Source: Candidatus Obscuribacterales bacterium (lineage in GTDB: Bacteria; Cyanobacteriota; Vampirovibrionia; Obscuribacterales; Obscuribacteraceae). Taken from it: DNA of 64,000 nt. Positions 1,456 to 60,027 of the stretch are shown here, piece after piece (within the stretch, counting starts at the first letter, position 1; each line of letters opens with the position of its first letter). The DNA is taken from contig CBDDIJ010000002.1 in NCBI GenBank assembly GCA_965228855.1, positions 384,001 to 448,000 of the forward strand, given 5' to 3'. Made by a program: the position numbers and the translations under genes. Below the pieces are notes generated by a model. The model did no database searches, was not told the DNA's origin, and saw nothing but the letters and a program-made list of their open reading frames with translations.

Positions 1456-1721
1456 CTACTATAGTAGACAGTCTAAATTTCCTACCAGAAGAATCCCGAG
1501 ACGCAGCAATAGCAGCCCTTTCAAGATTTAAAACATATCCCACGTCAATTCAAATTCTATTTTGTCGCTGTCAGATAGCCGGATTTTCAGGAAAGCGTCA
1601 TACTGGGATAGACACGGCTCGTCCAGAAAAAGGGAACAGATGTCGAAGATGCGCTGCTGCCCCACCACATCGCAACTTCAGCATTTCGGACTTTTATAGT
1701 AGACACGGTTGCTTATAGTAG
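1456..1721. repeat. Composite palindromic element, locus 1 (54-bp core 1562-1615; arms CTACTATA 1456, TATAGTAG ending 1702 and 1721)
   Basis: TTGTCGCTGTCAGATAGCCGGATTTTCAGGAAAGCGTCATACTGGGATAGACAC aligns with the other 11 cores. Confidence 0.8.
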
Positions 1722-1735
1722 AGAAAGTTGGGAGA

Positions 1736-1763
1736 CGAGAGCCCCAACTTAATGGGGCTCTCG
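1736..1763 (-). terminator. Stem-loop downstream of the SPFH pair
   Basis: CGAGAGCCCCA-acttaa-TGGGGCTCTCG perfect 11-bp stem; weak U-tract. Confidence 0.6.
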
Positions 1764-1817
1764 AAACTCCGCTTCTGATGAACGTTTCCGTTCCGTTCAA
1801 TCAGTCGCGAACTGGGC

Positions 1818-2693
1818 TCACTTCCCCTTGCGCGGGTCGAGATTGATGAACGGGATCTCGCCTTCGCTCATGTACTCGGGGACTTCGCCATCCCACTTCT
1901 CCGCCCGGCGCAGCTCGAGGAGGCCGGCGGCATCCTTGAGCGCCTCGCCCTTCAGCTGGATAGCCGTCGCGCGCGCCTTGGAGAGAAGTTCGGTTTCGTA
2001 CGCGCGGGCATCGGCGATCTTCTTCTTCACGTCACCGGACGCGCGAGCGATCGTAGCCTTCTGGAGAGCTTCGCTCTCGGCCTGCTGCGCACGCTGCTCG
2101 GCCTCGACCTTCGAGTCGATGGAGTCGTTGAACTCCTTCGAGAAATCGAAGTCGGTGATCGCCACCATGTTGATGACGATGGCGCCGGCGAGACCCTTTT
2201 CAGCCAGGGCACCTTCGATCGCCTTGGTGAGCTCCTGAACGACGCGGTCCTTGACCTCGGGTCGCTTCTGGATGAGCTCCTCGGCGAGGTAGCCGCCGGT
2301 GACCTGCTTCAGCGCCTGCTGCACGTTGTTGTCGAAGTACGCGGCATTGATGGCGGCGACACCACCCACGGTGGCATACACGCGCGGCCACATATCGTCC
2401 TTGATCGAGTAGGCGACGGTGATCTCCGTCGGCGCCGACTGACCCTTCACGGTCGCGGCAGCAGCCTTGATGTGGTGGACGAGCTGCGTGGTCGGCAGCT
2501 GCACGACGCTCTTCAGGGGGCTGATGATCATGGGACCATCGCCGCTCTTGACCGGGGTGGGCTCGACCGAGCCGAACTGCGTGACGACGCCGACGTAGCC
2601 CGGGTTGACCCAGGTGACAGTCCGCGCAAGGAAACCGAGGCCGATGACCGCGGCGACGCCCACACCGATGAGGGCAATCTTCTTGGTGTTCAT
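1818..2693 (-). CDS. SPFH/prohibitin (band 7) family membrane protein
   Basis: N-terminal TM helix, VNPGYVGVVTQFG, ITDFDFSKEFNDSIDSKVEAEQ coiled coil, EKWDGEVP; GAAGGA RBS. Confidence 0.9.
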   Translation of the reverse strand: MNTKKIALIGVGVAAVIGLGFLARTVTWVNPGYVGVVTQFGSVEPTPVKSGDGPMIISPLKSVVQLPTTQLVHHIKAAAATVKGQSAPTEITVAYSIKDDMWPRVYATVGGVAAINAAYFDNNVQQALKQVTGGYLAEELIQKRPEVKDRVVQELTKAIEGALAEKGLAGAIVINMVAITDFDFSKEFNDSIDSKVEAEQRAQQAESEALQKATIARASGDVKKKIADARAYETELLSKARATAIQLKGEALKDAAGLLELRRAEKWDGEVPEYMSEGEIPFINLDPRKGK

Positions 2694-2716
2694 GTCCGTA
2701 ATTCCTTCTCGCTCGA

Positions 2717-3613
2717 TTACTTCGACGGGGTCAGCATGGGAACAGGCATCGTGCCGGAATACTTCGGCAGCTTGCCCTTCCAGCGGCTGATCGCGGTGAG
2801 TTCGACCAGGTCGGGATTCTCGCGCAGAGCGGCAGCCTCGCGCTTGATGGCGTCGGCTTCCTTCTTGGCCAGCTCGACGGTCGAGTAGGCTTCGGCTTCC
2901 GCGCTGGCGCGAATGCTCTGAGCCTCACCCTCAGCCTCGGCGACCATCTTGGCGCCCTCGTTGCGAGCACGCTCAGCGTCCTGGCCGGCCTTCACCTTCG
3001 CCTCGATGGCAGCGGCGAACTTCGGCGTGAAGTCGAGGTTGTCCAGGGTGGCGCGGCCGATCTGGATCGAGCCCGGAGCGCCCTTGGACGTCATCGAAGC
3101 GGCGACGTGCGCGCGAATTGTGGACTCGATTTCATCGCGAACGGTTTCGCGCCTCTTCACGAGGTCGGTGGCCGAGAAGTTGGCCGTCACAGCCTTGACC
3201 GATTCCTGGATGGCAGGATCGAGAATGGCAGCCTCGAAGTTTTCGATCGTGCCATATTCGCGGTAGAAAACCGGCGCCTGGGTGTCGATCAGGTTGTACG
3301 GGACGGTGACCACGGTCGTGACCTTCTGCAGGTCATGCGAGCCGGAATTGGCGGTCGCCTTCTTGGGATTGACGAACGTCTGCAGCAGGTCGACCCGCGA
3401 GAGCGGATTGACGATGTTGAACCCGGGGGCCAGCGGCTGCGGATTCATCACGCCGAACAGCGACGTCGCACCCACGTAGCCACGCGGCACGATCTGCACC
3501 GAGTTCCAGCCGGCGATCACCAGAGGGATCGCGATGAGCGCGTACTTGATCAGGCTCAGGGGGTTGAACGGAGCGGCTCCATCCGAACGCCCGTTGAGGA
3601 AGGGAATCTTCAT
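2717..3613 (-). CDS. SPFH/prohibitin (band 7) family membrane protein, paralog
   Basis: VPRGYVGATSLFG, SHDLQKV, NLDFTPKFAAAIEAKVKAGQ, RWKGKLP; start moved to the ATG at 3613 behind an AAGGA RBS. Confidence 0.9.
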   Translation of the reverse strand: MKIPFLNGRSDGAAPFNPLSLIKYALIAIPLVIAGWNSVQIVPRGYVGATSLFGVMNPQPLAPGFNIVNPLSRVDLLQTFVNPKKATANSGSHDLQKVTTVVTVPYNLIDTQAPVFYREYGTIENFEAAILDPAIQESVKAVTANFSATDLVKRRETVRDEIESTIRAHVAASMTSKGAPGSIQIGRATLDNLDFTPKFAAAIEAKVKAGQDAERARNEGAKMVAEAEGEAQSIRASAEAEAYSTVELAKKEADAIKREAAALRENPDLVELTAISRWKGKLPKYSGTMPVPMLTPSK

Positions 3614-3984
3614 CACATCATCCTTGAAGTTGGTTGCGTTGATGCCTGCTCGATTACATTCATTCCAACCCGAAACCGTTCGCGATTCCCTCCACGCAAG
3701 CCGATCTGAGCTCGCGTAAAGGAAATTCGGCTGTCGCAAAGGGGAATTCGGGGTGCGGAAACTTATGCAAATGAGAAACAAGGCATGCCCGTATGTTATG
3801 AAAGTCGCTCTTGGCTAGTTTGCAAAATCGTATTAACTCGGACGGTTTACCCTCCTTTACATCCTTCAAACAGCCCCGCCCCTCGAAACCATTAAGCGAT
3901 TCAAATCCGGCACATGAACCACCTCTCAGCTCGCTAAGCTCACGCAAACAGAGCCTTCCTCCAATATGACTTCTTAGAACCTTT

Positions 3985-4274
3985 CTACTATACATTTTCG
4001 TATCACCAAAATACTGCAAACGACTGCTGCGATGGTCTTTCGAGAATTACGCAGCAAGCAGAACGGGCTTCAAGAACCCGTTTGGCAACGACAGATAGAC
4101 GGAATTTCAAGAAAGCGTCATTCCAGGATAGACAAGAAGCGACTAGACTTGGGTCACATCCCCCGGAAGCTAGACGGGCGCACGAACATGACCCTATCTT
4201 CTATAGTAGCACTTCGGACCATCTACCCCGGAAGCTGGACGGGCGCACGAACATGACCCTATCTTCTATAGTAG
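3985..4274. repeat. Composite palindromic element, locus 2 (core 4082-4135; arms 3985, and ending 4209 and 4274)
   Basis: TTGGCAACGACAGATAGACGGAATTTCAAGAAAGCGTCATTCCAGGATAGACAA; the right arm is duplicated. Confidence 0.85.
4161..4274. repeat. Direct repeat, two 49-bp copies (4161-4209, 4226-4274)
   Basis: CCCCGGAAGCT(A/G)GACGGGCGCACGAACATGACCCTATCTTCTATAGTAG, one mismatch. Confidence 0.95.
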
Positions 4275-4322: not shown

Positions 4323-5348
4323 CTATCGCCTCGATTCGAACTCGCGCTTGTCGTCTTCCGTGAGGAGACGGAACGCGGGATCGCTGAGGAAGCGCACCGG
4401 CATGATCGGGTCGAGTAGACCGGTTCCAAGCCCGAGCAGCCCCGTTCCGTAATCGTTGGTCTTGATGCCGAGCCGATGATAGAACTCGAGACAGACGCCG
4501 ACGCAGGTCCAGTGGTCGGTGTGGCGCTGACCCGCGAAGAGACCGACCCAGTCGTAGCCGGTGACACGGAACTTCGCGCGCAGTTTCTCCTTCCAGGAGG
4601 TCGGCAGCGGCAAGCGGTTGATAAACCGATCACGCCCAGCCTGCGCCTGACAGCGCCAGGCCTCGTTCTGCGCGAGAAGAACCTTGACCAGGTGCGGAAT
4701 CATCGCCTTCTGGTCGTCCGTCAGCGTTGCATTGAGCCGAAGCACAATGTAGTGCCCCTTGCTCGCCAGGCTGCCGGCGACGCGCGACGCTTCCTGCAGC
4801 ACCGTGCCCTTCTCCATGTAAGAGCTGAGCAGGTAAACAGTTCCGTCCGGCATCCTCACCGCCACTTCGCCATGCCCGACAGTCTCGCGCAGGCGATTGG
4901 CCATGTTGCCGGAGGTGAGAATGAGCTCAAGGTTTCCGGTGAGCGCCTCGACGGGCGGGTTGACCCATGCGCCTTTCGGCAACGGACCATGCCCCTGCAC
5001 CCTGTACTTCTGCCGGTTGCGACGGTAGAGAACATAGATGGTGAGCCAGGCCGCGAGTTCCACACCCGCGACGATCTGGAGCTCAAAAACACCCTGCCAG
5101 AGCGCAAGTCCCGACATGACCACGCCGAGCGTGATCGGAATCGTCATTTTTAGACGGGAGAAGACATCGAAATACGTGCGAAACAGATGACCGAGTTCGG
5201 AAGCGGTCAACGCAATCCAGAACGCGCTCACCAGAACACAACTCAGGCTGAAGCCCCAGGAAAGATTGCCGTGGAACCACTCCCAGGTCAGCCAGATCAA
5301 AGCCAGGTACGCGAACGACGTCGCGACCTTTTTGAGCCGATAGAGCAT
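4323..5348 (-). CDS. Four-TM membrane protein with a C-terminal permuted NlpC/P60 (YiiX/YebB-like) domain
   Basis: Hydrophobic N-terminus; His (VGHGEVAV) precedes GYDW and HWTCVGVCLEFY, the permuted papain-like order. Confidence 0.55.
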   Translation of the reverse strand: MLYRLKKVATSFAYLALIWLTWEWFHGNLSWGFSLSCVLVSAFWIALTASELGHLFRTYFDVFSRLKMTIPITLGVVMSGLALWQGVFELQIVAGVELAAWLTIYVLYRRNRQKYRVQGHGPLPKGAWVNPPVEALTGNLELILTSGNMANRLRETVGHGEVAVRMPDGTVYLLSSYMEKGTVLQEASRVAGSLASKGHYIVLRLNATLTDDQKAMIPHLVKVLLAQNEAWRCQAQAGRDRFINRLPLPTSWKEKLRAKFRVTGYDWVGLFAGQRHTDHWTCVGVCLEFYHRLGIKTNDYGTGLLGLGTGLLDPIMPVRFLSDPAFRLLTEDDKREFESRR

Positions 5349-6509: not shown

Positions 6510-6745
6510 CTACTATAAGACAAAGTATCCACAAAGTCCGAAAGGCCTTGTTCTACAATGCTTCCCGCTCTGCGACGTCCAATTACTGCGTCACTTGTCT
6601 ATCTGGCTATGACGGATTTGCCGAAATCCGTCGCTCTCCCGTAGCCAAGCAAGCAGGTTTCGCGCACACTCCGACGACGCACTCGCTGGAAACCCATCTC
6701 TCCCAGACCTTTCGAGGATCGCTATATACCCACTCTTTATAGTAG
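6510..6745. repeat. Composite palindromic element, locus 3 (core 6595-6648)
   Basis: TGTCTACTATAA (6507) ... TTATAGTAGACA (6748) 12-bp inverted repeat around TTGTCTATCTGGCTATGACGGATTTGCCGAAATCCGTCGCTCTCCCGTAGCCAA. Confidence 0.9.
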
Positions 6746-15840: not shown

Positions 15841-16395
15841 ATGGCAAATCAAAACAACACCGCAGGCGACCGCAGCCTCCAGAAGCGCAAGGGCATGGCG
15901 ATCAAGGGTCTCAAGGCCTGGATCAAGGCGCTTGAGCTCAACGAAGGCGTCAAGGTCAGCGCTCACAGCTACCGCTACGAAATCGCCGCCAACGGCGAGA
16001 CCGCTCGCATCTACCTGGCAGCCACCGGCGCCACGGTCGACGGCACCGAGCGCACGCTGACCGAATGGGCCGACAGTGGCAAGCCCTGCCGCCTGGCTCT
16101 CATCGGTCTGCGCTACACCAAGGACCAGCTCGAGCGCGATGGCGACCGTGTCCTGTACACGATGAACGTCATCACCCGCGAAGCCTACCTGTCCCGCCGT
16201 GGCGAGCGCCTGACGGACCAGCCCGCGACCATCGAAGCGTGGGCCGAGGTCGGCAAGCCCATCGAGAAGCGCGAATTCGAAAGCCTTCGCGTGGCGATGG
16301 ACTACCACAACGAGGAAGCGGCTGCCAGCGTCAAGGCGAACATGATTCGCTGGGGCATCATCCGTCCGGCGAAGGACGGCCAGGACGCCGCCTGA
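15841..16395 (+). CDS. Hypothetical protein
   Basis: AAAGGAG RBS, strongly GC3-biased codons, 184 aa. Confidence 0.8.
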   Translation: MANQNNTAGDRSLQKRKGMAIKGLKAWIKALELNEGVKVSAHSYRYEIAANGETARIYLAATGATVDGTERTLTEWADSGKPCRLALIGLRYTKDQLERDGDRVLYTMNVITREAYLSRRGERLTDQPATIEAWAEVGKPIEKREFESLRVAMDYHNEEAAASVKANMIRWGIIRPAKDGQDAA

Positions 16396-16553
16396 GAATT
16401 CCGGGACACGCGGGGCGCCATAAAGTCGAGGGACCTCGACCAGGCGCTCCGCGTACCTTCCGGTTTTTCATTCATCCAACTCAGAGTCGTTTAATTCCGG
16501 ATGTAGAAAAACCAAAAAGGTGCCCGCCGCAAGGTGGGTAGTGAGTACGACAA

Positions 16554-18554
16554 ATGAACAAAAAAGGCTTCATTTGGTTCGTGGCGCTCGTCTTCATCGG
16601 CCTCTTCCTGTTCCAGGGAAGCAACAACAACGGCGGCCAGTCTGCTGCCGAGGTGGTGAAGCCGGAAGTCGTCTCCTTCGACCAGGTGCGCAAGACGGTT
16701 GAGACCAACCCGACTGCCGTGGAGAAGGTGACCTTCGTGAAGGACGCCAACGGAACCGTTCAGGAGGTTCTCCTTACGTTCAAGGAGAGCTCCCAGAAAT
16801 CGCTCTCGGCGCAGATTCCCGGCGACGCCGGCAGTTCGCGCCTCCTTGCTGCAGCTGAAAGCGCCGGTGTTCCCACCGACGCGAAGGGCTACGAGCCGCC
16901 ACCGGTCAGTCCGTGGCAGCCGCTGTTCTCGATCCTGGGATGGATCCTGCCGTTCGTCATCATCTTCTTCCTGTTCCAGTGGCTCATGAAGGGTGCTGCG
17001 AACGCTCAGAACGGCATGCGAGACAAGCTGGCCAGCGCGAACGCCACCAAGTTCGAGCCGCAGAAGGACCGCAAGACGTTCAAGGACGTCGCGGGATGCG
17101 ATGAAGCCAAGCAGGAGCTGCAGGAAGTCATCGACTACCTGCGCAACCCCGGACTGCTGGCCGAACTCGGTGGCAAGCCTCCCAAGGGCGTGCTGCTGGT
17201 GGGCGGACCCGGTACGGGCAAGACGCTCCTCGCCAAGGCAGTCGCCGGCGAAGCCAACGCTGCGTTCTTCTCGATCTCTGCTTCGCAGTTCGTCGAGATG
17301 TTCGTCGGCGTCGGTGCCGCCCGCGTGCGCGACCTCTTCAACCAGGCGCGTGAACACAAGCCCGCCATCGTGTTCATCGACGAACTCGATGCGGTCGGTC
17401 GCCAGCGTGGCACCGGCCTCGGTGGCGGCAATGATGAGCGCGAACAGACGCTCAACCAGCTGCTGGTCGAGATGGACGGTTTCAAGGTCAATGACGGCAT
17501 CATCCTGATGGCCGCGACCAACCGCCCGGATGTTCTCGATCCGGCGCTCATCCGTCCGGGTCGTTTCGACCTCCAGGTGCTGGTCGACAACCCGGACAGG
17601 GTCGGTCGTCAGGACATCCTGAAGATCCACTCCCGCAACAAGAAGCTGGCTCCGGAAGTCAACCTCGACATCATCGCCACCAACACGCCCGGCTTCTCCG
17701 GCGCTGAGCTCGAAGGTGCCGTCAACAACGGTGCCATCGTCGCTGCTCGCCGCATCAAGGAAGAAGTAGCCGCGCTTCGTGCCAAGGGCGTTTCGGAAGC
17801 CGACATCAAGAAGCAGGTGCCGCACCACATCACCATTGCCGACCTCGACGAAGGCGTTGATCGCGTTCAGATGGGTCCGGCGAAGGAGAACGCGGCCAAG
17901 CGCATGTCCAGGGTCGACATGGAGAACACGGCCTATCACGAGCTCGGGCACGCCTGGGTCTCGCAGGTCATGTTCGAGAAGGGCCAGGGCGGCGACCCCG
18001 TCACCAAGATCACCATCGTGCCCCGCGCTCGCGCGCTCGGGTACACGCAGGCTCTGCCGCGCGGTGACCGCTTCAACATGACGAGGGACAACCTCAAGGC
18101 TCGCATCATGATGGCGATGGGCGGTCGCGCGGCTCAGGAAATCTTCCTGAACACGATCGACACCGGCGCCTCCAACGACTTCAAGCAGGCGAAAGCCTGG
18201 GCCCACCGCATGGTCACCGAATTCGGCATGTCCGATCTCGGTCCGATCTCGGTCGGTGAGGGCGGTCCCAATCCGTTCCTCGGCCGTTCGATGGCTTCCA
18301 ACCACGAGACCGGTCCTGCCCTCCAGGATCGCATCGACGAAGCCTGGGTGAAGATCGTCAACGAGTGCTACAAGGAGACCGTGGAACTCCTCAAGGCAGA
18401 CGCCGAGTGCATCCGCAAGATCGCCGACGTTCTGCTCGAGAAGGAAACCATCCTCGGTCCCGAGTTCGAGCAGCTCCGCAACGAGTCGAAATGCGCCATC
18501 AAGCCCTGCAGCGACTGCGAAGTCGACCAGGACGGCGGCGACAACGACAAGTAG
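16554..18554 (+). CDS. ftsH: ATP-dependent zinc metalloprotease FtsH
   Basis: 2 TM helices, GGPGTGKT Walker A, FIDELD Walker [27 protein letters not shown]. Confidence 0.97.
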
Positions 18555-19232: not shown

Positions 19233-19239
19233 TCGCCGT

Positions 19240-19285
19240 GGAGACCCTCGCTGCGCCTTTACAGCGCAGCGAGGTTTCTCCTTTT
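19240..19285 (+). terminator. Intrinsic terminator
   Basis: GGAGACCCTCGCTGCGC...GCGCAGCGAGGTTTCTCC followed by TTTT. Confidence 0.7.
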
Positions 19286-26461: not shown

Positions 26462-26472
26462 GAGAGATAACT

Positions 26473-27600: not shown

Positions 27601-27615
27601 GGCAAGGAGTTTTCC

Positions 27616-43078: not shown

Positions 43079-43552
43079 TCAGACCTCGACGACGAGCACG
43101 ACCGAATCGCGCGGACCGAAGTCCATGCGATTCATGTCGAACGGCTCGATCGTCTCTTCGGGCTCGTACCGGCGGAGCACACGGTCGACGAAATCCAGGC
43201 CCTCGGCTTCCTCGGCGACGATGTCGGCGAGGTTTTCGAGAGCGCCGTTGAGGTCGTCGACCGACAGGTTGCGGAGCGTGTCGCCGAAGCTGTCCGCCTG
43301 AATCATGCCGGCTTCCAGCATGTCAGCCAGGAGAGCGACATTGATGCCGCGGTCGCGCAGCTCGTCCGCGTCGGGGAAGAGGGCGAGCCCGTCCTCGTCC
43401 TCGAACAGCGCCAGGGCGCGGTCGCCGCGGTCGGCGAAGCGGTACTGGTCGATGATCGAGTCGACGCGCAGTTCTTCGTTCGCGAGCATGCCAGCCACCT
43501 GCGAGGTGAGCTGCGAGCCGGAAACGACGGCGATGAGAGTGATGTTCTTCAT
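43079..43552 (-). CDS. Acidic hypothetical protein
   Basis: AAAGGA RBS before MKNITLIAV; GC3 bias; Asp/Glu-rich. Confidence 0.75.
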   Translation of the reverse strand: MKNITLIAVVSGSQLTSQVAGMLANEELRVDSIIDQYRFADRGDRALALFEDEDGLALFPDADELRDRGINVALLADMLEAGMIQADSFGDTLRNLSVDDLNGALENLADIVAEEAEGLDFVDRVLRRYEPEETIEPFDMNRMDFGPRDSVVLVVEV

Positions 43553-43719
43553 GGTCAAGTATCCTTTCGGTTTGAGGTTGTGCACCACTAGTGGTGCGGT
43601 GAAACAAAACCAGGTGCGACGTCCACCCGGACATCGCACCCTCTCCGAGCACGCGCACAGAGTCGCGCTCCGAACGAACCAGGGACGGATGCAGAAGCAT
43701 CCGCCCCCGGGAAACAGGC

Positions 43720-43950
43720 TTAGCGCCGCTTGCCGCTATTCCGAATCTCGAAATCCGACTTGCGACGCTTCACCAGCGTTGCCGAACCGTAGTTCAGCTT
43801 CATGCTGCCCTCCTTGCTGGTGCGCTCCAGCTGGACGCCGGTGTGGAACTCCCCACCGATCGCCTCGCTGCAGCCAACGCACACCTTCGTGTCCGGCAGC
43901 GCCTCGAGACGCTTGGCCGGAATGGGCTCATCACAACGAATGCAAAACAT
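43720..43950 (-). CDS. TraR/DksA C4-type zinc-finger protein
   Basis: CIRCDEPIPAKRLEALPDTKVCVGC; GGAGGT RBS. Confidence 0.9.
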   Translation of the reverse strand: MFCIRCDEPIPAKRLEALPDTKVCVGCSEAIGGEFHTGVQLERTSKEGSMKLNYGSATLVKRRKSDFEIRNSGKRR

Positions 43951-44021
43951 GCAGCACCTCCTAGGTTTGACCTATCCCCCATTGGATTCGGTCTGATTGA
44001 CACGCCACCGTATACGGTGGT

Positions 44022-44420
44022 CTACCCGATCAGCTTCTCGACCTTCGCGCGGTTCGCCGCGTGCCGGAGCACGTAGCGCGCGAAGCTCAGGTTGCTGGTC
44101 GTGGTGTACTGGGGCGCCTCCATCACGGAAGCGTACCCGCGAACAGCCCGCTCGAGCTGGCGGAACTGCTGCTTCGTCAGCGTCACCGCGAAGCCGCCGG
44201 CGTAGAGCGCCAGCTGCGTCATGGCTCGGCTGTGCTTGGTCGTGCGGCGCTCGCCCTCCTCGTCGACAGGGTTGTGATAGAGCGCAGCGATCGTGCCGCA
44301 CACCATCTGCCTGTCGAACGTCAGGAAATTCCTGGGCAAGCCCTCACCCATCGGTCCGAAGCCGCGACTCATGGAGAAGTCGACGGCGACGTTGACCTGA
44401 GGACCATTTTTCGTGGCCAT
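44022..44420 (-). CDS. Hypothetical protein
   Basis: AAGGAG RBS before MATKNGPQ; GC3 bias. Confidence 0.75.
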   Translation of the reverse strand: MATKNGPQVNVAVDFSMSRGFGPMGEGLPRNFLTFDRQMVCGTIAALYHNPVDEEGERRTTKHSRAMTQLALYAGGFAVTLTKQQFRQLERAVRGYASVMEAPQYTTTSNLSFARYVLRHAANRAKVEKLIG

Positions 44421-44488
44421 GTTTGGCTCCTTGTTAGAGAGTGTTTTGAACTGAGAGCTAACAACCACTGTCTGATGGGTCCAGCGAA

Positions 44489-44914
44489 CTAGACCCACCG
44501 GATGTTTTCGTGTCGCGGGAACGGTCCACCGAAGACCTTGTCGAAGCACGCATCCTGCACGACCTCCTGCTCGCTGTCGGGGCACGCCAGAAGGAGACCT
44601 TCGGACGTTTCGGCAACGCAGCAATAGGTTTCCGCGCCGGTGATGCGGAACTTCGCCATCTCCCAACCGCGCTTCACGCAGGCCTCGATGACCTCGTTGG
44701 CGCCGCCGAAGGTGCGCTTGACGGCGCGGGCGAACTTGCCGTAGCCGTGCAGCTTGTCGAGGATGTGGTCGTAAGTGGGACCGCCGTAGTAATACTCGAG
44801 AAGGACGATGGGCTCGCCCTTGGCTTTTGCCGAATCCAGCTCACGTTCGATCGCCTCCAGGACGGGGCCGAACGGTACGTAAGCGATCTGGCAATCAACG
44901 ATTACGTGAACCAT
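44489..44914 (-). CDS. Isochorismatase/cysteine hydrolase family protein
   Basis: VIVDCQ (Asp), KRTFG (Lys), ITGAETYCCVAET (Cys). Confidence 0.75.
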   Translation of the reverse strand: MVHVIVDCQIAYVPFGPVLEAIERELDSAKAKGEPIVLLEYYYGGPTYDHILDKLHGYGKFARAVKRTFGGANEVIEACVKRGWEMAKFRITGAETYCCVAETSEGLLLACPDSEQEVVQDACFDKVFGGPFPRHENIRWV

Positions 44915-45029
44915 CCTGTTCTCCTTTCTTATTTTTGAGGCGAAACGCGTGCGCGGTTTCGGCTCGGGTTAAGAAGACGGGGCGGGCGCAACTCGCGCCT
45001 GCCCCATCGCTAGAAACGAACTTGTGACG

Positions 45030-45566
45030 TCAGGCCAGAGCCTTACGCGACAGCACGACGTCGTCGCCGATGATGCGGAGAACGACGGCGTGAACCGACG
45101 TCCCCTTCTTCAGCGACGAGACCTTCATCGAACCGAGTTCGCTGACCGGCAAGAGTGCGCGCACGCCGTCAAGGAGGATGACGCCGGCTTCACCTGCCAT
45201 GTGAGCGAACTTGCCCTTCACCTTCTTGCCGACCGGAAACTGAGCGACGAGCGCCGGGTCCGGACGGTTGGGCTGACGAGAAGCAGGAGCAGCGGCGGGC
45301 TCGACCTCGATGACCTCGTCCAGCCGCTCGGAAACCGTGTGGAACGGTTTGCCGAAGCGGTCATCCGATGTCGCGATGACGAGAACGCGAATCTCCATGC
45401 CGACCTTGAGCTCGTCGAAACGAGCGCCACGGTTGTTGCCCTTGAGCTTGCAGAACGGAAGGCGAGCGGGTTCTGCGCTGTCGAGTTCGAGGATAGCGAA
45501 CTGCTTATCCCGGTTGATGACGGTGATTTCACCGCCTGTGACTGAGCCTACTTTTGATAGAGCCAT
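45030..45566 (-). CDS. Two-S1-domain RNA-binding protein
   Basis: KVGSVTGGEI..ELKVGMEIRVLVI; VGKKVKGK..GVRALLPVSEL..LKKGTSVHAVVLRI..VVLSRK; AAGGAGG RBS. Confidence 0.8.
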   Translation of the reverse strand: MALSKVGSVTGGEITVINRDKQFAILELDSAEPARLPFCKLKGNNRGARFDELKVGMEIRVLVIATSDDRFGKPFHTVSERLDEVIEVEPAAAPASRQPNRPDPALVAQFPVGKKVKGKFAHMAGEAGVILLDGVRALLPVSELGSMKVSSLKKGTSVHAVVLRIIGDDVVLSRKALA

Positions 45567-45954
45567 GGTAATAACCTCCTTCCAGTCACCGGCGTGCAAA
45601 GGCCGGCGCTGAAACATGTTTGGATTTTGCCTAACTCGGACACCACCGACGGTGGCGCCCCTTCGAAGCAGAAAAGCGAGTCCGAATCGCTCCGAACCCG
45701 CCTCTGCCTCATTCAGCCGACTGCGCTCGCAATCGACCGGTTGGGTCTCTCGGGGGCGATTTCTTCGCCCTGCGAGTGACCTCCACTTCAACCGCGGCAT
45801 AACGACCGCCATCGCGGCAGTCTCTCGTCCGCGGCACCGTACGTGCATTTGCACCAGCTACGGTATCGCTGGGCAAAGTCGACACGCGCCGGCGAACCGC
45901 CGCGTGTGAGTTTGGTTCACGAAGAGCAGCTGTTCACTGCCTTCTTGGACGAAC

Positions 45955-46581
45955 TCAGTTCTTGTCCGACACCGCCGCCAGGAACTGGAGCAGGTACAGG
46001 AAGAAGTTGAGGAAGTCCAGGTAGATGGACATCGTCAGCTCCACGGCCTTCGCCCAGGTGTTCTCGGAGTGACCGAGCCGGAAGAAGTCGTAGACGAAGT
46101 AGCCGGCGAAGATCACCATGCCGAACAGGCTGTAGACGATGTTGACCGTGCGGGACATGCGGACGAAGATGCCGATGACACCGACGATGATCAGCCCGAA
46201 CAGACCGAAGCCCAGGTAGGTGCCCCAGCCGCTCAGGTTGGCCGTGGTCAGAAGACCGTAGGCGCCGCAGCCGGCCATGACGCCAGCGGTGCCGAGGAAG
46301 GCGCCGCAGACCGTCTGCCAGCCGAGCTTCTGCGAGTACATCTCGACCGACGGACCCATGACGAGACCGGACAGATACGCCCAGCCCATCAGCAGGATGA
46401 TGCCGACGACCGGGTTGATGTTGGCGGCGACGATGACGGCGATGGTGCCGAGCACGAAGCCGACGAGGAGCGCGATCAGACCGCCGAGCGACTGCACACG
46501 ACGACCACACAGGGTCCCGAAGGCGCCCATGAGCATGGTGCCGGTGAGCAGCAGCGCGACTTTTGCGAACAGGGTTTCCAT
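45955..46581 (-). CDS. Bax inhibitor-1/YccA family membrane protein
   Basis: 7 TM helices, AFLGTA, FAGYFVYDF, IYLDFLNFFLYLL. Confidence 0.9.
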   Translation of the reverse strand: METLFAKVALLLTGTMLMGAFGTLCGRRVQSLGGLIALLVGFVLGTIAVIVAANINPVVGIILLMGWAYLSGLVMGPSVEMYSQKLGWQTVCGAFLGTAGVMAGCGAYGLLTTANLSGWGTYLGFGLFGLIIVGVIGIFVRMSRTVNIVYSLFGMVIFAGYFVYDFFRLGHSENTWAKAVELTMSIYLDFLNFFLYLLQFLAAVSDKN

Positions 46582-46752
46582 GTTGTAAACCTTTCGATGA
46601 CAGGCAGAGCCTGCCGGGTTAGGCGCGACTTCGCGCCAGAGATGAGTCGCAGCGAACTGCGACTCGAACCTACATGACTCAACGTCGAGCCATGTACTCC
46701 GGGGCGTTGCCGCCCCGGAGCATCAAGCTACGTCAGGCCGGAGCCCGACGCG

Positions 46753-47691
46753 TCAGACCGCAACGCGGCGCGGCAAGCGCATCCGCAGGTTGACCATCTC
46801 GATGCCCTCCGCAGTCGCATGCAGCGACTCGTCGGAAGGCAACGCCGGCACACTTGCGGTGAGCGTCTGCATTGCACCGTACTGCGGCGAGCCGACCAAC
46901 GCTGACAGCAGACTGGCACCGTTGGGAACGGGGCGCGGTTGCTCCCGCCGACGAACCGGTGCCACCGCGGGGGAAGCCGCGAAGTGGCTCAGCTTGCCAC
47001 TCACCTCGCTGCCGACCTTGCGGGCGGCTTTGCGGTGAGCCTCGACCTTGTTGGTCTTGGTGCCCCAGACTCCACGAGCCAGGCTGGACAATGCCACGAC
47101 CCGGACCAGAAGCTGGCTCTCCTGAGCCGACCGCCGGTAGTCCCAGGTCATGCCGGACACGTCCAGATACGCCCCAGCTTCCTTGTCGTACTCGGGACCG
47201 GAGAACCAGCCCCACTCACGCTTCGGAATCTGGAAGTACTGCCGGAACATGGTGGTCGTTCCGTGCGCGCCGTCGGTATATCCGCGCGGCATGCTTCCCT
47301 TGCCGCCAACGGCGGCGAGCGTGGGCAGAATCTCGTGCTTCCGCTCCGGTTCGAAGCCACGCTGGCCGACCAGAATTGAAGCCACTTTCATCAGCCCAGC
47401 GCTTTCGACTGCGCTCCGGAGGATGTCGAAGAGCGACACCGACCGGTGATTCAGCATGCGGACAGCGATGGTATCGCCATCCTCCGAGACTCCGAAACCG
47501 GCGAACCGCGTTTCATGGCGATCGCCAGTCACCCCGGTGTGTTCGGCGCCATTGAGCAGGTCAATGGTGTCGATGCCGTCGAAGCCCGGTCCGTCGAATC
47601 CAACGAGTCCAGCGAAACCGTGACCGACTGCATCGAACCCGTCGAGACCACCGCAGTGGCCTCCTGCGTCCAAACCATCACAGGCGTCCAT
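46753..47691 (-). CDS. Hypothetical protein with a Gly/Asp-rich N-terminus
   Basis: AAGGAGG RBS; 312-aa ORF co-oriented with the block. Confidence 0.7.
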   Translation of the reverse strand: MDACDGLDAGGHCGGLDGFDAVGHGFAGLVGFDGPGFDGIDTIDLLNGAEHTGVTGDRHETRFAGFGVSEDGDTIAVRMLNHRSVSLFDILRSAVESAGLMKVASILVGQRGFEPERKHEILPTLAAVGGKGSMPRGYTDGAHGTTTMFRQYFQIPKREWGWFSGPEYDKEAGAYLDVSGMTWDYRRSAQESQLLVRVVALSSLARGVWGTKTNKVEAHRKAARKVGSEVSGKLSHFAASPAVAPVRRREQPRPVPNGASLLSALVGSPQYGAMQTLTASVPALPSDESLHATAEGIEMVNLRMRLPRRVAV

Positions 47692-47823
47692 AGTTGAGAC
47701 CTCCTTTTGCTTTGAGTTGCGACGAGAACCCTCGTCATGGTGATAAGAAAGTCAGGCGCGACGTCCACCCGGACGCCGCACCCAGCCTACCGACCGTGTC
47801 TCCACGTCCGGCGGCTGTCGTTG

Positions 47824-48744
47824 CTAGCCCTGCAGGACCACCAGGTGCTGGTGACCATTGGGGGCCAGTTCGGCGATGTTGGAACCGACAGCAGCGATTG
47901 CGTCCGACGCCTCTTCCTGGGTTTCTTTCCAGGCAGCGAACGCCGAGCAACCGTTCCTGTACGGGCAACCTTCGCAGTGGAGACCGGTGTTCGCTTTGAA
48001 CTCGCCGGACTCCACCGCCTTTTCGATGCGCCGAATCACCGAGGCGACACGGAACATGTTGCGTTCGGTAGCCGCACGCGAATACCAGAACACATGCTCC
48101 TGCTTCGAGCGGAGAAGGCGGATGACGAGCTTTACCGGACCGTCGTACGACAGAGCCCGACCAACCTGCGCCACCATGCCGGCGAAGAACACCTGGTCCT
48201 TCGCCTTCTTCCTGAGGTAGAACGCCGTCTTCTTCTCGACGAGCTGGAGAACATCGCGTCCCTTCCCTCCGTCGACCATGCCGGTCTCGTCGGGCTTGGC
48301 CACCAGTTCCCAGTGCTGGACCGGAGCCGCACAGCGCAGCAGGAGCTTGTCCTTCTGCTGGTCATGCACCTCGTCGCCAGCCTCGTCGAGAATCTCGTCG
48401 TTCTCGATCAGCTCCCGCACGATGCGCTCGGCTTCCACCCGGGTTTCCTCAGGCAGGCGCTCGAGCTGACGAGCGAGGTCCGCTTCGCGCTCCTCACCTC
48501 CCACTTTGGCCGTGGCGCGGTGCGTCAGGTCGCCGATGATCTGGTGGATCTCGCGCGGGGCCTTACGCTCGCGTTTCTTGCTCTTGCAGTAGGCGAGTTC
48601 GCACTCCTCGAATTTGCGCCAGTCCGAGAAGGACAGGCTGCGGTCCCAGGGCTTGAGGCCCGGGGGTGTCTCTTTCTGCTCCCGCCTGGGGCTGGGAGTG
48701 GAGTTACCCGTACGGGTCTCCTTGATGTCTGTTTCGTGTTTCAT
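47824..48744 (-). CDS. PD-(D/E)XK nuclease with a 1+3 Cys (Cas4/AddB-like) arrangement
   Basis: SLSFSDWRKFEECELAY, GDLTH, AKPD...VEKKT, HCEGCPYRNGC. Confidence 0.8.
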   Translation of the reverse strand: MKHETDIKETRTGNSTPSPRREQKETPPGLKPWDRSLSFSDWRKFEECELAYCKSKKRERKAPREIHQIIGDLTHRATAKVGGEEREADLARQLERLPEETRVEAERIVRELIENDEILDEAGDEVHDQQKDKLLLRCAAPVQHWELVAKPDETGMVDGGKGRDVLQLVEKKTAFYLRKKAKDQVFFAGMVAQVGRALSYDGPVKLVIRLLRSKQEHVFWYSRAATERNMFRVASVIRRIEKAVESGEFKANTGLHCEGCPYRNGCSAFAAWKETQEEASDAIAAVGSNIAELAPNGHQHLVVLQG

Positions 48745-49099
48745 ATGAACCTCCGATGGAGAATTTGCGAGCGCCGTTGAGCGCTCTGGTTAACCTGGGA
48801 GAACGTCTCCCCAGTCAGCCCCCAGCAGCTCAAACGAGCTACCACCCGGGCTGACCAGCACCGCATTTCAGCGGCCCCACCGAAGGGTCCGAACGCGCGC
48901 AGCACAAGAGGCGCGACACCATGGACGGTGTCACGCATCGAGCCGGCGAGCGTCAGAGGTTCGGATAGGGGATTGTGTTGGGCTTAACTGGTGAACTGGA
49001 AGTCGCCGGCGCGTGTACCGAGAAGCGGCAGCAGCCTTCGGTTAATCACGCGCATGCGATGAGTCCTGTTCGGTCAGCTAAGCTGCTAGCCTGGTTGAA

Positions 49100-49528
49100 C
49101 TAGTTGACGCGAACCGCGCCGACCATCTCAGCCAGCTGGTCGCCGTCATCGAGGACGATGACTTCGCCTTCGCCGAACATCGTGCGAGCCTTGAGCCCAT
49201 CCGTGTTGACGTCACCGTTCGGCAGCACGGCGTCATCAGTGATGATGAAGCGGTTGTCGACGATGGACGCGAAACCAGGAATGTCCTTGGCGACGACGGC
49301 GGGCACGGCGCCGGCGAGCACATGGAAGCTGCGGCGTTTGCCACTGCGGGTCGAACGAACGACGAAGTCGCCTTCACCGAGACCGTTGATGGTCGCCATC
49401 ACGGCTTTGCCGGTCTCGTGCTCGACGGGCGTGGTGTTGACGATGGCTTCGCGAGATGCGAAGAGAGCGCTGACGAGTTTGCCGCCGTGGTCGCTGGTGA
49501 TAACCGGAATGTTTTTGGACTGTGTCAT
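49100..49528 (-). CDS. Hypothetical protein
   Basis: AAAGGAG RBS before MTQSKNIP; GC3 bias. Confidence 0.75.
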   Translation of the reverse strand: MTQSKNIPVITSDHGGKLVSALFASREAIVNTTPVEHETGKAVMATINGLGEGDFVVRSTRSGKRRSFHVLAGAVPAVVAKDIPGFASIVDNRFIITDDAVLPNGDVNTDGLKARTMFGEGEVIVLDDGDQLAEMVGAVRVN

Positions 49529-50515
49529 GAGTGTCTCCTTTTGTTTTTCTTGTTTTTGCTCAATATCGAGCGGTTTATGAAACAACACGACTGCCATCCG
49601 GGAAGGCACGAGAAACTCGTGTCTGCCCCTTCATCGGACGGCGAGTCTATATCACGAGCAGCTTGGAGCGGCGCGTGAGAAATGCGGTTACCCGCGAATT
49701 TCCGGAAGAATCAGGCGCGAATCGAAACCAACATGCAGCGAAGCTAGCTCCACCGAGGTCGACAACTTCATCCCAGCAGGGTTTTCACCTGCGTTGGCTG
49801 GTCTATGGAGAACCAGGCAGTCTTGCTAAACGATGGGATTCCGCTTGCCGCCCCGATGGAGCTAGCTTCGCTGCATCATGGATGCAGGGTAAATGTTTCG
49901 ATTGCGTGAACCAGATTGGTTTTGAGCTGGTTTGTTCGCCTGAAGAGGAAGTGAATCTGTTTTAGAGATAAGTCGAGTCTAATAAACAGCATTGATGTCA
50001 AGCAATAGCGGGGTACATTCCCGTTTACGTTCTAAACACGGCGAATGCCTGAGCGGCCAGTCTTCTGAGCTCCCACTAGATAAGCGTTTACAGGCTTGAT
50101 CCCGACCCTTTTGCTCTTAAAAGCCCTCTTTTTAAAATAGATATGAGTTCGTAGCCTTACGTAGATAAACTGGTATTAATGCCTAGCGCGGCTAGATTAA
50201 CCCCGAGTAATTTCGAATCGGCAGTTCTGCAGTTCGATCTCGCGCGACATAGGCCTAAGCTGTCATGTTCTTTTTGACACAGTTGTTCCACCATCAGATC
50301 TAAATAGATCTGATGAACGAAACAGGCCAAACTGAAGATGAACTGATCAGTTCGCGCAGCTTGCCTAGATTTAATCTTTGCGGTTTTCAGACCAAACCAT
50401 GTCAAATCATCGAGTACTCGATGAGAACTTGAACTCTAAATTCGAGCGTTAGCGCTTCGCATGCATGCAAAGTCCGTCCCGTTCGAAATAGAAACGGGCC
50501 CCGTTTCTATTCAGG

Positions 50516-56191: not shown

Positions 56192-56309
56192 CCCTCCCTA
56201 CTACTCCATTTAAAACTGCTAAGCGTCCAAGAACGCCTCCCTACCGAGATCCCTTCCTACTACTCCATATAAAACTGCCAAGCGTCCAAGAACGCCTCCC
56301 TACCGGGAT
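56192..56309. repeat. Tandem 59-bp duplication containing the left arm of locus 8
   Basis: CCCT(C/T)CCTACTACTCCAT(T/A)TAAAACTGC(T/C)AAGCGTCCAAGAACGCCTCCCTACCG(A/G)GAT twice. Confidence 0.95.
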
Positions 56310-56502
56310 TGCAGGGGACGAGGGAAATTCCACTCCGGAGTTTGGCTATCCTGCATAGACGGATTTTCGAAAATCCGTCTATGCAGCGTAGCCAAAGCCA
56401 GGGTCAAGGCGGCTGCGGTTCCGATTGGAATCGCGCGATGGCTGACCCTGCTGCCCTTCTGAGTCTTAACACGCTCGAAGATTCTAGTACTTCCTATAGT
56501 AG
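56198..56502. repeat. Composite palindromic element, locus 8 (core 56342-56395)
   Basis: TTGGCTATCCTGCATAGACGGATTTTCGAAAATCCGTCTATGCAGCGTAGCCAA; arms CTACTACT 56198 and 56257, TATAGTAG 56495. Confidence 0.95.
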
Positions 56503-56670: not shown

Positions 56671-57315
56671 CTAGATGTCCAGAACGATGACGTTTTCCGT
56701 CGGTTGATACTTCTCCGTCAGACAGGCGGCATTGACGAAGGTCGTGCCGTTCTGCTCCGTGACGCCGGCAGAGTGATGGACGTGTCCGAAACAGTGAACC
56801 TTCGGGCGAACCTGAAGGACACGTTCGAGCAGGAACTCATCTCCGAGCGTCGGCCAGAGCGGCGCGCGGTCCAGAATGCCTTTGGGCGGACCGTGCGTCA
56901 CGAGGACATCGACATGGTCAGGAACCTTCTGCCAGACGGCGGCCAGTTCCGGAGAACTGCGCGGCAGGTTGAATGCCCACTTGCGATACTCGGGTTGCCA
57001 CGGACTTCCGTAGATGCGGAGGCCGGCGAGCTCGACGAGTTCATCCTGCAAGTAAACGGCATTGGTAAGCAAAGCACGAGCTTCCGCGTTCATCTGCTCG
57101 AACACGGTTTCGTGATTGCCAGCAACGACAACCTTGAAGCGGTGAGGCAATTCACCGAGCTCCCGGTTGAAATTTGCGACTTGGCTGAGATGTTCAGATG
57201 GCGTTTTTGCCTCCACTCGCATGGTGAAGTCACCGCAGTGGATCAGCATGTCACCGTCCGGCACCTTCACTCTGCCAAGTCTGTTGTGAGTATCGCTCAC
57301 AAAGACCAGTCTCAT
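56671..57315 (-). CDS. Metallophosphoesterase (MPPED/239AB-like)
   Basis: SDTH, HCGDFT, AGNHE, YGSPWQP, THGPP, FGHVH. Confidence 0.92.
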   Translation of the reverse strand: MRLVFVSDTHNRLGRVKVPDGDMLIHCGDFTMRVEAKTPSEHLSQVANFNRELGELPHRFKVVVAGNHETVFEQMNAEARALLTNAVYLQDELVELAGLRIYGSPWQPEYRKWAFNLPRSSPELAAVWQKVPDHVDVLVTHGPPKGILDRAPLWPTLGDEFLLERVLQVRPKVHCFGHVHHSAGVTEQNGTTFVNAACLTEKYQPTENVIVLDI

Positions 57316-58597: not shown

Positions 58598-59127
58598 CAA
58601 TCACCGCATGTAATACCAGCAACATGTTCACAACAGGCTGTTCACCTCGAGTTCACATTGAAGACTGCGCTAACTGAGCAATGTCAGCTTGCACCGAATG
58701 CGCTTCATGACAGCATCGTTTTTTGTTTATTTTTGTCCGGCGCGAGAGGTCTAGATGTCCAATGGCGCCGGCTTTCGACCAGATATTTACATTTGTGAAA
58801 GAACGTTGTTGCGGGAGCTTCATAAAGCTGGAGCTTTGTTCCCGACACCGTAAGTGGTACCACACAGTCACTTCTTCTTTCAATTCCCGGACGTCCCCTG
58901 CACATTTACCAATAGCCAGTTCTGCGCCAATCCAAACACTTTCCTTCCAGCCTGCGGCCGGAAGAATTGTGCGGCGTTCGGTGAATGGCTGAATTGCGAG
59001 ACTGGGGACGTTAAACATCTGGAGAACTGAATGAACGGGTAGTGAGCAGAACCTAAACGCAGCGCAGCTTTCTCGGTACTGACTCGTCGTCAGGCCGGTT
59101 GTGCAACCCTCCATAAGAGACCTCCGC

Positions 59128-59625
59128 ATGAGCACAAGAATCGAAAAAATTATCTACGCATCACGATGGCTGCTCGCGCCGATCTATCTGGGTCTGGCGT
59201 TGGGCTTGCTGTTGTACGGTGTTCGCTTTGTCGCAGAACTCTGGCACCTCGCCCACGATGTTCTGACGGCATCCGATGAAAAAATGCTGTTGTCGGTGCT
59301 GCATCTGATCGAAATCGCCATGCTCGCGAACTTCATGATCATGGTCATAATCGGCGGCTTCGCACTCTTCGTGAAACAGCTAAAGGGCGAAGCCACGCAG
59401 CTGCAGTGGCTCGACCATATCGACCCAGGCGTCTTGAAACTCAAAATGAGTATGTCTTTGCTGGGCGTCTCAAGCGTTCACCTCTTGGAGGCCTTTGTGA
59501 ACGCTGCTTCCGTCACGACGGGGACTCTGGCGAAGCTGCTCGTCATCCATCTGGTTTTCGTCGCATCCACAATGGCAATCGCGTGGGTCAACCGCATCGG
59601 TCGCCGAGAGCCGAACGACCACTAA
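59128..59625 (+). CDS. TIGR00645 / UPF0114 (YqhA) family membrane protein
   Basis: ASRWLLAPIYLGL, IAMLANF, LKLKMSMS, SSVHLLEAF. Confidence 0.9.
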   Translation: MSTRIEKIIYASRWLLAPIYLGLALGLLLYGVRFVAELWHLAHDVLTASDEKMLLSVLHLIEIAMLANFMIMVIIGGFALFVKQLKGEATQLQWLDHIDPGVLKLKMSMSLLGVSSVHLLEAFVNAASVTTGTLAKLLVIHLVFVASTMAIAWVNRIGRREPNDH

Positions 59626-59660
59626 CGCTTCCTGAACGGGGCGTTTTGAAGTAGTCCCTG

Positions 59661-59708
59661 GAAGGGCTGTAGGTCCGGATATCCGGCTCTGCAGCCCTTC
59701 TTTTTTTT
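59661..59708 (+). terminator. Intrinsic terminator
   Basis: GAAGGGCTGTAG...CTGCAGCCCTTC followed by T8. Confidence 0.85.
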
Positions 59709-59725
59709 CCAGCCCAGCCGCTCAT

Positions 59726-59972
59726 CTACTAAAGTATCTAGTTTCTAAAACAGTCCAAAAGCAGTCATGGCAGCTGGTTTCCACTTTCACGTCCGTCACT
59801 TGCTCCGCATTGGCGGCGTGGCGATGACGCTTTCGGCGAAATTCGTCAATGCCCGATAGACAAGATCTAGTTACAAGCATGCTCGATTGAACGGAGAAAA
59901 CCGGAAAGCATTAGCCCCACAGCTGCGCTGGACTCCGGCGGAGTTCGAAGCCCCCGCTATATTACCTAGTAG
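59726..59972. repeat. Composite palindromic element, locus 9 (core 59810-59863)
   Basis: TTGGCGGCGTGGCGATGACGCTTTCGGCGAAATTCGTCAATGCCCGATAGACAA; arms CTACTAAA 59726 and CCTAGTAG 59965. Confidence 0.8.
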
Positions 59973-59989
59973 AGATTTCGCAAGGTGAA

Positions 59990-60027
59990 AAGGTCGATGC
60001 CGTCTGGATATCCAGGGCATCGACCTT
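59990..60027 (-). terminator. Terminator after the fumC operon
   Basis: AAGGTCGATGCC...GGCATCGACCTT. Confidence 0.65.

Follow-up and report, generated by a model that had tools for sequence, protein, structure and literature searches.

Bacterial interspersed mosaic elements (BIMEs), which bind gyrase and IHF, and repetitive extragenic palindromic (REP) sequences are among the described repeats that come closest to the element reported here. According to PMC3733652, REP sequences have stems of 5-13 bp that are directly tagged by GTAG or CGTC, occur in complementary stem variants and are accompanied by RAYT (REP-associated tyrosine transposase) genes; PMC11208160 describes insertion of IS621 in REP sequences, likewise a case of targeting by the IS110 type. 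In this study, we analyzed a window of 64,000 nucleotides from a Candidatus Obscuribacterales bacterium, a non-photosynthetic relative of cyanobacteria (positions 384001-448000 of contig C2 in genome G000, which comprises 8.2 Mb in six contigs). Here, an element made of a double-box palindrome and short outer arms lies a short distance past the terminators of GC-rich transcription units. Our preferred reading, to which we give a probability of roughly 0.45, is that it is a protein-bound operon-end boundary whose outer edge tends to break and to be sloppily rejoined.

The element works most like REP/BIME repeats or like a recombination locus with a core and accessory sites, without the defining features of either. 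As in REPs, BIMEs and REPINs (paired REP sequences), there are hundreds of extragenic palindromes downstream of genes, in clusters and tandem copies and restricted to one lineage. They are also targets of IS110 elements, as reported for REPs in PMC11208160: all seven IS110 transposases of G000 lie inside palindromes, at two fixed positions, and G007, the other palindrome-rich genome, has empty sites for two of them. In contrast to the REP definition in PMC3733652, however, GTAG stands 14-19 nt from heterogeneous, unrelated terminators, the palindrome measures 52-56 bp and shows little compensatory change, and a simpler site is kept throughout the family at one gene class. RAYT (Y1 HUH) transposases (PF01797) gave no match in G000 and G007, although CGTC REP families also do without one.

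Genes were called with our own dicodon caller, so class counts are approximate, and those whose third codon positions had a G+C content (GC3) of at least 0.70 were counted as the GC-rich class. The order of stop codon, hairpin, gap and arm given in a preliminary description of the window was verified in all ten cases, with exact gaps of 14, 15, 15, 15, 18, 19, 15, 17, 17 and, as the one exception to 14-19 nt, 25 nt. A hairpin of 10-13 or more bp precedes each gap (folding energy of the segments, -21 to -41 kcal/mol), and after the gap comes CTACTATA or a variant differing by one base; CTACTATA occurs 19 times in the window, compared to 0.18 expected. Within the window, no structured RNA was recognized by Rfam or tRNA searches. 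The three convergent backbone junctions described as lacking the element (13100/13107, 23261/23278 and 63572/63578) indeed lack it. The claim that every GC-rich block carries an element is true of the window (10/10) but not of the genome, in which the palindrome was found at 98 of 142 high-GC3 block ends; the arm site was present at 113 of these 142, a circular figure because the matrix was derived from those arms. Nor is the element confined to GC-rich blocks, since element 3 (6510-6745) adjoins two low-GC3 genes, and the arms of the origin region scored genome-wide (C2:77-1125 kb) also face 27 low-GC3 3' ends and 46 5' ends. The expected enrichment beside high-GC3 genes was nevertheless found in this region: the palindrome is present in 101 of the 372 intergenic regions where a high-GC3 gene ends, versus 30 of 421 others.

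Genome-wide, 154 outer arms face a 3' end, and a hairpin lies 5-32 nt away from 121 of them. The gap is 14-19 nt in 87 of these 121 pairs and has a sharp floor, with 27 pairs at 14 nt and just three at 13 nt; the 14-nt floor seen in G000 is present again in the relative G012. For 16 of 41 arms facing low-GC3 3' ends, there is no hairpin and the stop codon is at most 30 nt away. Hairpins with few U residues were also observed in 119 of 138 internal spacers of the class.

The arm turned out to be one half of a 17-bp dyad, TACTA-N7-TAGTA, which was seen at orthologous terminators of relatives. A symmetrised matrix built from G000 arms alone was then applied to relatives. For class block ends, it detected the dyad in 41 of 57 cases in G012 (shuffles would give 0.8), 22 of 28 in G002 (1.0) and 16 of 21 in nine other genomes; among block-internal spacers, the corresponding figures were 6/61, 3/39 and 2/28. 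None of the 155 low-GC3 block ends on contig C3 had a dyad. No 5'-5' region scored in G012 (0/46) or G002 (0/21), and 10/123 did in G000. Both halves are conserved as TACTA and TAGTA, and the spacer is free to vary. By our own tally over 107 genomes, the exact dyad gave 74 matches versus 22 for the control.

The preliminary description had also proposed outward-firing antisense promoters. In an extended form of this model, TATAGT in the arm would be a -10 element from which antisense RNA starts at the end of the mRNA, and the double box would be a looping activator site, so that the GC-rich programme would be silenced in another life stage. TATAGT is near-invariant in G000 arms, where the sigma-70 bases -12T, -11A and -7T are all present, and class genes have almost no TATAAT-type hexamers upstream (0-1 of 287). 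The 33-bp spacing of the boxes and their helical phasing resemble enhancer geometry such as that of NtrC sites. Moreover, the site has a symmetric AT-rich motif with TAnnnT on both strands in many copies, like the bidirectional sigma-70 promoters treated in 10.1101/2020.01.31.928960, and back-to-back TATAGT would place the starts about 28-29 bp apart, a bidirectional-promoter spacing given there. However, the signal does not persist in relatives: of the site orientations, 56 of 128 have TAnnnT in register in G012 and 13 of 64 do so in relatives of the same genus, -12 and -11 are not conserved, and no -35 peak was found at the right distance from the dyad TAnnnT. Conservation peaks away from the key -10 bases, the sites are confined to 3' ends, and the duplication edge described below would go unexplained. 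The promoter model is distinctly improbable in our view. Since TAnnnT is weakly kept and no -35 is present, a dimeric protein site is the better reading, and the dyad is likely bound by such a protein.

The palindrome is an elaboration of this site. It was counted by profile (E<=0.01) in G000 and by pattern in 104 family genomes. The profile found 218 copies in G000 (183 on C2, 25 on C3 and 10 on C5), of which 217 are intergenic and almost all those on C2 lie before 1.13 Mb. The pattern gave 199 matches in G000, 184 in G007, one in G006 and none in the other 101 genomes searched. The G006 contig is probably stray because it is 86% identical to G000, compared to 74-80% for other G006 contigs. 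Among the matches listed from the species collection, 56 of 58 palindrome loci were titled Candidatus Obscuribacterales bacterium; for the remaining two, the "Acidobacteria" contig is probably misbinned, being 93-95% identical to G000. No match to the pattern was found in viral contigs.

The palindrome, in its 52-bp form, consists of two 17-bp boxes, G[TG]C-N11-G[AC]C, placed 33 bp apart and having the same CTAT-N5-ATAG core as the dyad. An arm is present on 245 of 436 palindrome sides, versus 1.2% in random windows; 72 of the 218 palindromes have both arms (CTACTATA ... TATAGTAG, forming terminal inverted repeats) and 109 have one. Arm-to-centre distances cluster at 100-102, 110-114, 120-126 and 132-137 nt (243/245 arms), and the best period over the four clusters is 11.3-11.5 bp, corresponding to helical phasing. 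Linkers share hardly any sequence between loci, apart from short phased A and T tracts that are kept. The two palindrome halves vary nearly independently (18.1 pairs of 28 versus 17.0 after shuffling halves, 168 copies); the excess is significant but small and comes mostly from one subfamily and the central pair. The strongest dependencies are between adjacent bases. Judged by this variation, the palindrome evolves like a protein site and not like an RNA hairpin.

Comparison of 511 orthologous regions between G000 and G007 showed the element in both genomes in 61 cases, one G007-only array, no G000-only case and 449 empty regions, and it offered no clean empty site for reading a target-site duplication. 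While positions are fixed, copy number varies from 1 to 10. These data bear on whether the palindrome is a selfish miniature element targeting terminators, as had also been suggested. About 40 palindromes do lie outside the origin region beside ordinary genes, the G007-only array consists of 73-bp units, and the G002 junction corresponding to that of element 3 has no element. Yet 61 of 62 element-bearing regions are common to both genomes, which speaks against active transposition; between loci, linkers have next to nothing in common beyond the short positions that are maintained; the dyad is older than the palindrome, and no Y1 transposase was found in G000 and G007. We consider such an element hardly credible as a general explanation, although the palindrome, as opposed to the dyad, was probably spread by a burst in the past. 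The terminal inverted repeats are reminiscent of miniature inverted-repeat transposable elements (MITEs), but the internal sequence is not conserved. By the features tested, the element is not a REP/BIME, an attC site (see below) or a MITE.

Two kinds of observations accompany the palindromes. First, a subfamily with GTCAAT ... GTCGCT boxes forms tandem arrays of 71-73 bp units without arms of their own (G000 C2:77347, 322812, 552342 and 652827, and in G007, where one array is unique). Second, the IS110 elements comprise two variants with four and three copies, inserted within the palindrome boxes (C2:197223, 774711, 858572, 988082 and 1120781; C5:861390 and 1461428; e.g., L096:14711-15673), whose long left ends likely hold bridge RNAs.

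Tandem arms of the same direction revealed a fixed duplication edge. Of 67 outermost pairs, 54 lose their homology no more than 11 nt beyond the outer side of TATAGTAG, where a uniform distribution would give 16; for units of at least 60 nt, this applies to 32 of 44 (5.5 expected). The pairs from G000 and G007 overlap in part, some being the same events. The inner end of the duplications can lie anywhere. Recent copies often contain 4-12 unmatched bases after the inner arm, as in an example of 130/130 identical positions followed by seven new bases, and other copies have 8-11 nt of the gap in common. Between G000 and G007, the gap is about 0.76 identical versus 0.9 for the linker in 32 pairs picked for inward similarity, and thus diverges somewhat faster. 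At G000 C2:572500-573040, microsatellite-like 73-nt repeats stand in place of an element and a short-chain dehydrogenase/reductase gene that are present in G007.

Block ends are also hotspots of gene gain and loss. Extra genes were found at 9 of 14 class 3'-end junctions versus 11 of 76 in the comparison with G002, and at 14 of 16 versus 36 of 104 in that with G012, and the inserted GC-rich units that were mapped end in their own site. The gene-capture model of the preliminary description thus survives only in this weaker form, and not as recent capture.

One rival for this turnover is RNA-templated capture, in which a DNA 3' end outside the arm would prime synthesis on mRNA 3' ends. New or relocated units would be joined 3'-end first, the mRNA ends being terminator-protected or close to a stop codon, and read-through RNAs ending inside the element would give rise to duplications. 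The fixed boundary is where an mRNA end is expected (gap = U-tract plus 5-12 nt of filler), fillers resemble neither the outer gap well (identity 0.54) nor the inward neighbour (0.28), the 3' ends of inserted units point at a site, and 15 of 81 genomes have a conserved retron-like reverse transcriptase (identity >=56%). However, that enzyme was not found (E<=1e-60) in the site-bearing genomes G013, G017, G024, G085 and G018; the cDNA would be promoterless, whereas core GC-rich operons keep upstream promoter-like motifs; and fourfold synonymous divergence between G000 and G007 is lower in the class (0.091 versus 0.148), which argues against frequent passage through RNA. We regard this route as unlikely.

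A second rival treats the 5-7-5 dyad as the core of a tyrosine recombinase site, with the phased boxes as accessory sites and the units moving as cassettes. In the region, there are two atypical Xer-like proteins (C2:369775 and 923144) that are 92% identical in G002, genes turn over at the sites, and the combination of a short dyad with helically phased protein sites over 100-250 bp resembles lambda att (attP), Xer cer/psi and Tn3 res. In those systems, however, one would not meet some 150 loci at transcript 3' ends with variable spacers; here no 6-8 bp crossover spacer is shared between sites, and both breakpoints and the edges of duplications fall beyond the dyad. Because 5' ends lack sites, the units are not flanked on both sides. 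In addition, the catalytic motifs of the Xer-like proteins are altered, a search of low sensitivity did not find these proteins in G024, G085 and G018, and G000/G007 have no serine resolvase. Integron attC sites share a length of about 56 nt, two inverted 7-5-7 sub-sites, a location at gene 3' ends that turn over, and GTCTA..TAGAC ends reminiscent of R''/R'. The element differs in lacking RYYYAAC/GTTRRRY (its ends are TGKCTAY / RTAGMCA) and structural covariation, and its units lie in both orientations, include multi-gene operons with their own upstream motifs and are interspersed with backbone genes. The two tyrosine recombinases encoded in the region, which were the ones compared with the IntI model TIGR02249 (cut-off 265) among these two and 15 other PF00589 matches of G000, scored 44 and 57 bits. 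We consider an att-like site very doubtful.

The age of the GC-rich class is a separate question from that of the palindrome. GC3 of G000 genes is bimodally distributed, with 383 (about 400) genes in the class. These extend about 720 kb to the left and 330 kb to the right of oriC (dnaA at C2:792753, skew minimum at 789 kb) and carry on at the end of C5; backbone genes within the origin region have ordinary codon usage. The GC-rich DNA of C2:1-70 kb and C4 has unrelated gene content and is almost without sites, and the first 70 kb of C2 are probably chimeric since, in G007, the end of C5 continues into C2 at a point near 70 kb. For the blocks, assembly artefact was rejected, as contigs of runs X2 and X4 cross both gene classes with no differences listed. 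The blocks had been interpreted as foreign DNA gained together with the element. This was not borne out: 7 of 10 window blocks are, for most of their genes, syntenic and high in GC3 in G002, most are syntenic in G001, G002, G004, G005 and other genera, and the palindrome is known from 2 of 104 genomes and one stray contig. Blocks thus occur syntenically in relatives that lack the palindrome, but the simpler arm form is kept there. Over 12 stretches and 11 relatives, class orthologues keep GC3 of 0.72-0.81 at 40-80% amino acid identity, compared to 0.46-0.70 for backbone orthologues (a gap that is small in G012, G013 and G018). Synteny and codon usage together indicate that the GC-rich blocks are old and not recent captures.

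As for the origin of the codon bias, the lower synonymous divergence of the class points to selection or biased conversion and led us to reject a mutator or deaminase. Ordinary high-expression bias was rejected as well because ribosomal genes are less biased than the class. By eye, TTG-N3-N18-TAnnnT-N6-ATC is common to four of five aligned class upstream regions. Family scans, which referenced 305 of 327 class genes of C2:180-1125 kb outside the window with libraries and cut-offs differing between batches, identified peptidases and enzymes of lipid and nucleotide catabolism, beta-oxidation, the tricarboxylic acid cycle and NAD salvage, together with FtsH, MoxR-VWA, PrkA/YhbH/SpoVR and a group-2-like sigma factor. 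The class may represent a life-stage gene programme. A phage or plasmid origin was discarded because metabolic families and no virion genes were found among the proteins scanned. Avoidance of MazF-type motifs was discarded too, the depletion of TAA/TAG being the same in unrelated GC-rich contaminant genes and a MazF-like gene being present in one of 61 genomes, G000. This orphan PemK/MazF-like gene (L072:13322-13702, GC3 0.78) has been added to a GC-rich NAD-salvage operon.

Returning to the operon-end boundary, the 17-bp site about 15 nt past the last terminator would mark the 3' boundary of GC-rich units through its dimeric protein, and DNA at its outer edge likely breaks repeatedly and is imprecisely rejoined. 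Inward rejoining would produce tandem duplications with filler. Outward rejoining would erode the flank until something essential is reached, either a stop codon or the terminator with its U-tract; the sharp 14-nt floor would result from this. Genes would be gained and lost at these places when the edge is joined to other DNA. In G000 and G007, the palindrome and phased linker may serve as accessory sites of a looped or wrapped complex. Candidate purposes are the insulation of units from read-through and the relief of transcription-generated supercoils. A more far-reaching version, which we consider rather unlikely, is a programmed system in which a site-specific factor opens DNA outside the dyad and joins it with untemplated filler to transcription-unit 3' ends, the 400-gene life-stage set around oriC being built, reshuffled and bounded in this way.

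Several results weigh against the boundary reading. Origin-region low-GC3 block ends also score for the dyad (23/57 in G012, 6/25 in G002, 47/140 in G000, and also 5/30), in part because their regions are shared with convergent class ends, and 8 of 13 low-low convergent regions of G012 contain the dyad. With one mismatch, whole-genome dyad counts fall below the reversed control, so such counts do not give the range of the site. U-tracts of site-linked hairpins are not weaker than those of ordinary terminators (3.5 versus 3.2 T of 8, p=0.39) and show no sign of needing a roadblock; the idea of weak terminators requiring one was rejected. Indels between G000 and G007 fall at the edge in 25 of 129 cases versus 9%, an excess of only about twofold that includes many fragmented alignments, and no joints at elements were seen in contigs of four public runs. 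Finally, neither the binding protein nor the breaking enzyme was found among the candidates examined in G000 and its relatives.

The candidate enzymes considered were the retron-like reverse transcriptases, the Xer-like pair (in 18 of 81 genomes), the class sigma factor (in 5 of 61 at E<=1e-75) and a neighbouring phospholipase D (PLD)-like gene, whose atlas hits stayed under 0.9; the distribution of none of them follows that of the site convincingly. In the Xer-like pair (L079:9775-10713 and L103:3144-4055), Lys replaces the first catalytic Arg and the HxxR histidine is gone, with Tyr kept. One reverse transcriptase (L210:3508-4395; G000 C3:2800508-2801395) shows core-gene-like conservation (85% in G002; 66% and syntenic in G012), comes after a P-loop protein of 695 aa and an intergenic region of 420 nt without an Rfam match, and is possibly domesticated. 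The other (L104:4342-5628; G000 C2:944459-945628), also present in G007, is extended at its C-terminus and has a short inverted repeat upstream, and an arm begins 17 nt past its stop codon.

Looser parallels exist outside mobile elements. The RacA ram and parS sites of B. subtilis are likewise many degenerate palindromes distributed asymmetrically around oriC, but the placement observed here follows a codon-distinct gene class and not chromosome position alone. Reb1/TTF-I and mTERF have binding sites that follow an RNA 3' end at a short, fixed distance, and to our knowledge no protein-assisted terminator or boundary system of such a kind has been described in bacteria. No account of the element or of the gene class was found in the literature covered, which excluded subscription papers and supplements. 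The chromosome holds two interleaved gene classes, one of which, about 400 oriC-proximal genes, keeps its own codon usage over deep divergence and carries its own 3'-end signal. No family tested here fits a sequence-specific mark of the operon ends of one gene class that is also a place of gain and loss. The class, rich in peptidases, enzymes of lipid and nucleotide catabolism, FtsH and PrkA/YhbH/SpoVR, gives a way into the life cycle of Obscuribacterales. The site is a precisely defined sequence with which the binding protein can be searched for, and the two IS110 elements are new bridge-recombinase variants with known natural targets.

Table 1. Elements and GC-rich transcription units of the 64,000-nucleotide window.
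Feature	Position	Strand	Remarks
Element 1	1427..1721		left arms 1427, 1456; palindrome 1561-1616; right arms 1695-1702, 1714-1721
High-GC3 block, two SPFH/Band 7 genes	1818..3613	-	no match at the syntenic place in G002
Element 2	3985..4274		palindrome 4081-4136; right arm duplicated
High-GC3 gene	4323..5348	-	in G002, G005 and, relocated, in G012
Element 3	6510..6745		palindrome 6594-6649; between two low-GC3 genes, arms 15 and 11 nt from stop codons
High-GC3 operon: unknown, FtsH, unknown, RseP	15841..20522	+	syntenic in G001, G002, G005, G012
Element 4	20588..21046		duplicated left arm 20588, 20618; palindromes 20725-20780, 20896-20951
High-GC3 operon: VWA, TPR, VWA, unknown, amidase, holin-like with four transmembrane segments	24832..29973	+	syntenic across genera
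Element 5	30048..30297		palindrome 30134-30189; one arm per convergent terminator
High-GC3 single gene between elements 5 and 6	30424..31608	-	absent at the junction in G002
Element 6	31947..32175		palindrome 32035-32090
High-GC3 operon: unknown, HAD-like, metallophosphoesterase	32400..35369	-	
Element 7	41758..42467		166-nt tandem units; palindromes 41855-41910, 42022-42077, 42306-42361; right arm 42460-42467
High-GC3 block: Bax inhibitor, PD-(D/E)XK nuclease, isochorismatase, unknowns	42537..49597	-	
Element 8	56198..56502		left arms CTACTAC, duplicated as a 59-nt unit; palindrome 56341-56396; right arm 56495-56502
Metallophosphoesterase, GC3 0.68	56671..57315	-	ends at element 8
UPF0114 gene, GC3 0.72	59128..59625	+	ends at element 9 (25-nt gap); no syntenic match in G002
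Element 9	59726..59972		palindrome 59809-59864; arms CTACTAAA and CCTAGTAG
High-GC3 gene, GC3 0.72	60052..60492	-	ends at element 9; syntenic in G002

Individual loci of the window illustrate these patterns. Judged from its absence in G002, the SPFH/Band 7 block is a lineage-specific unit ending at element 1. The duplicated right arm of element 2 belongs to a 65-nt unit that is 98% identical and has a 16-nt unmatched filler following the inner arm, and the right arm of element 4 (21039-21046) faces a 5' end. In G004, a single 17-bp site follows the terminator orthologous to that at element 5, and G004 and G012 hold different genes at the junction where the single gene between elements 5 and 6 is located. 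The first gene of the operon next to element 6 was detected in 18 of 36 other family genomes and in none of 24 genomes outside the family. In the block next to element 7, the genes closest to the element differ from those of G002.

Further examination of intergenic structures revealed a strong hairpin at 31911-31946, separated from the left arm of element 6 by about 13 nt on its outer side, where no gene ends; it may be left over from a unit that was lost, or belong to an RNA that has not been annotated. In addition, long structured 3' and 5' regions of GC-rich operons (32195-32400, 35369-35800 and 15400-15840) are kept in relatives and carry repeated GGGCATRGCGCA hairpins and a CCTTGCTCCGGCAAG block.

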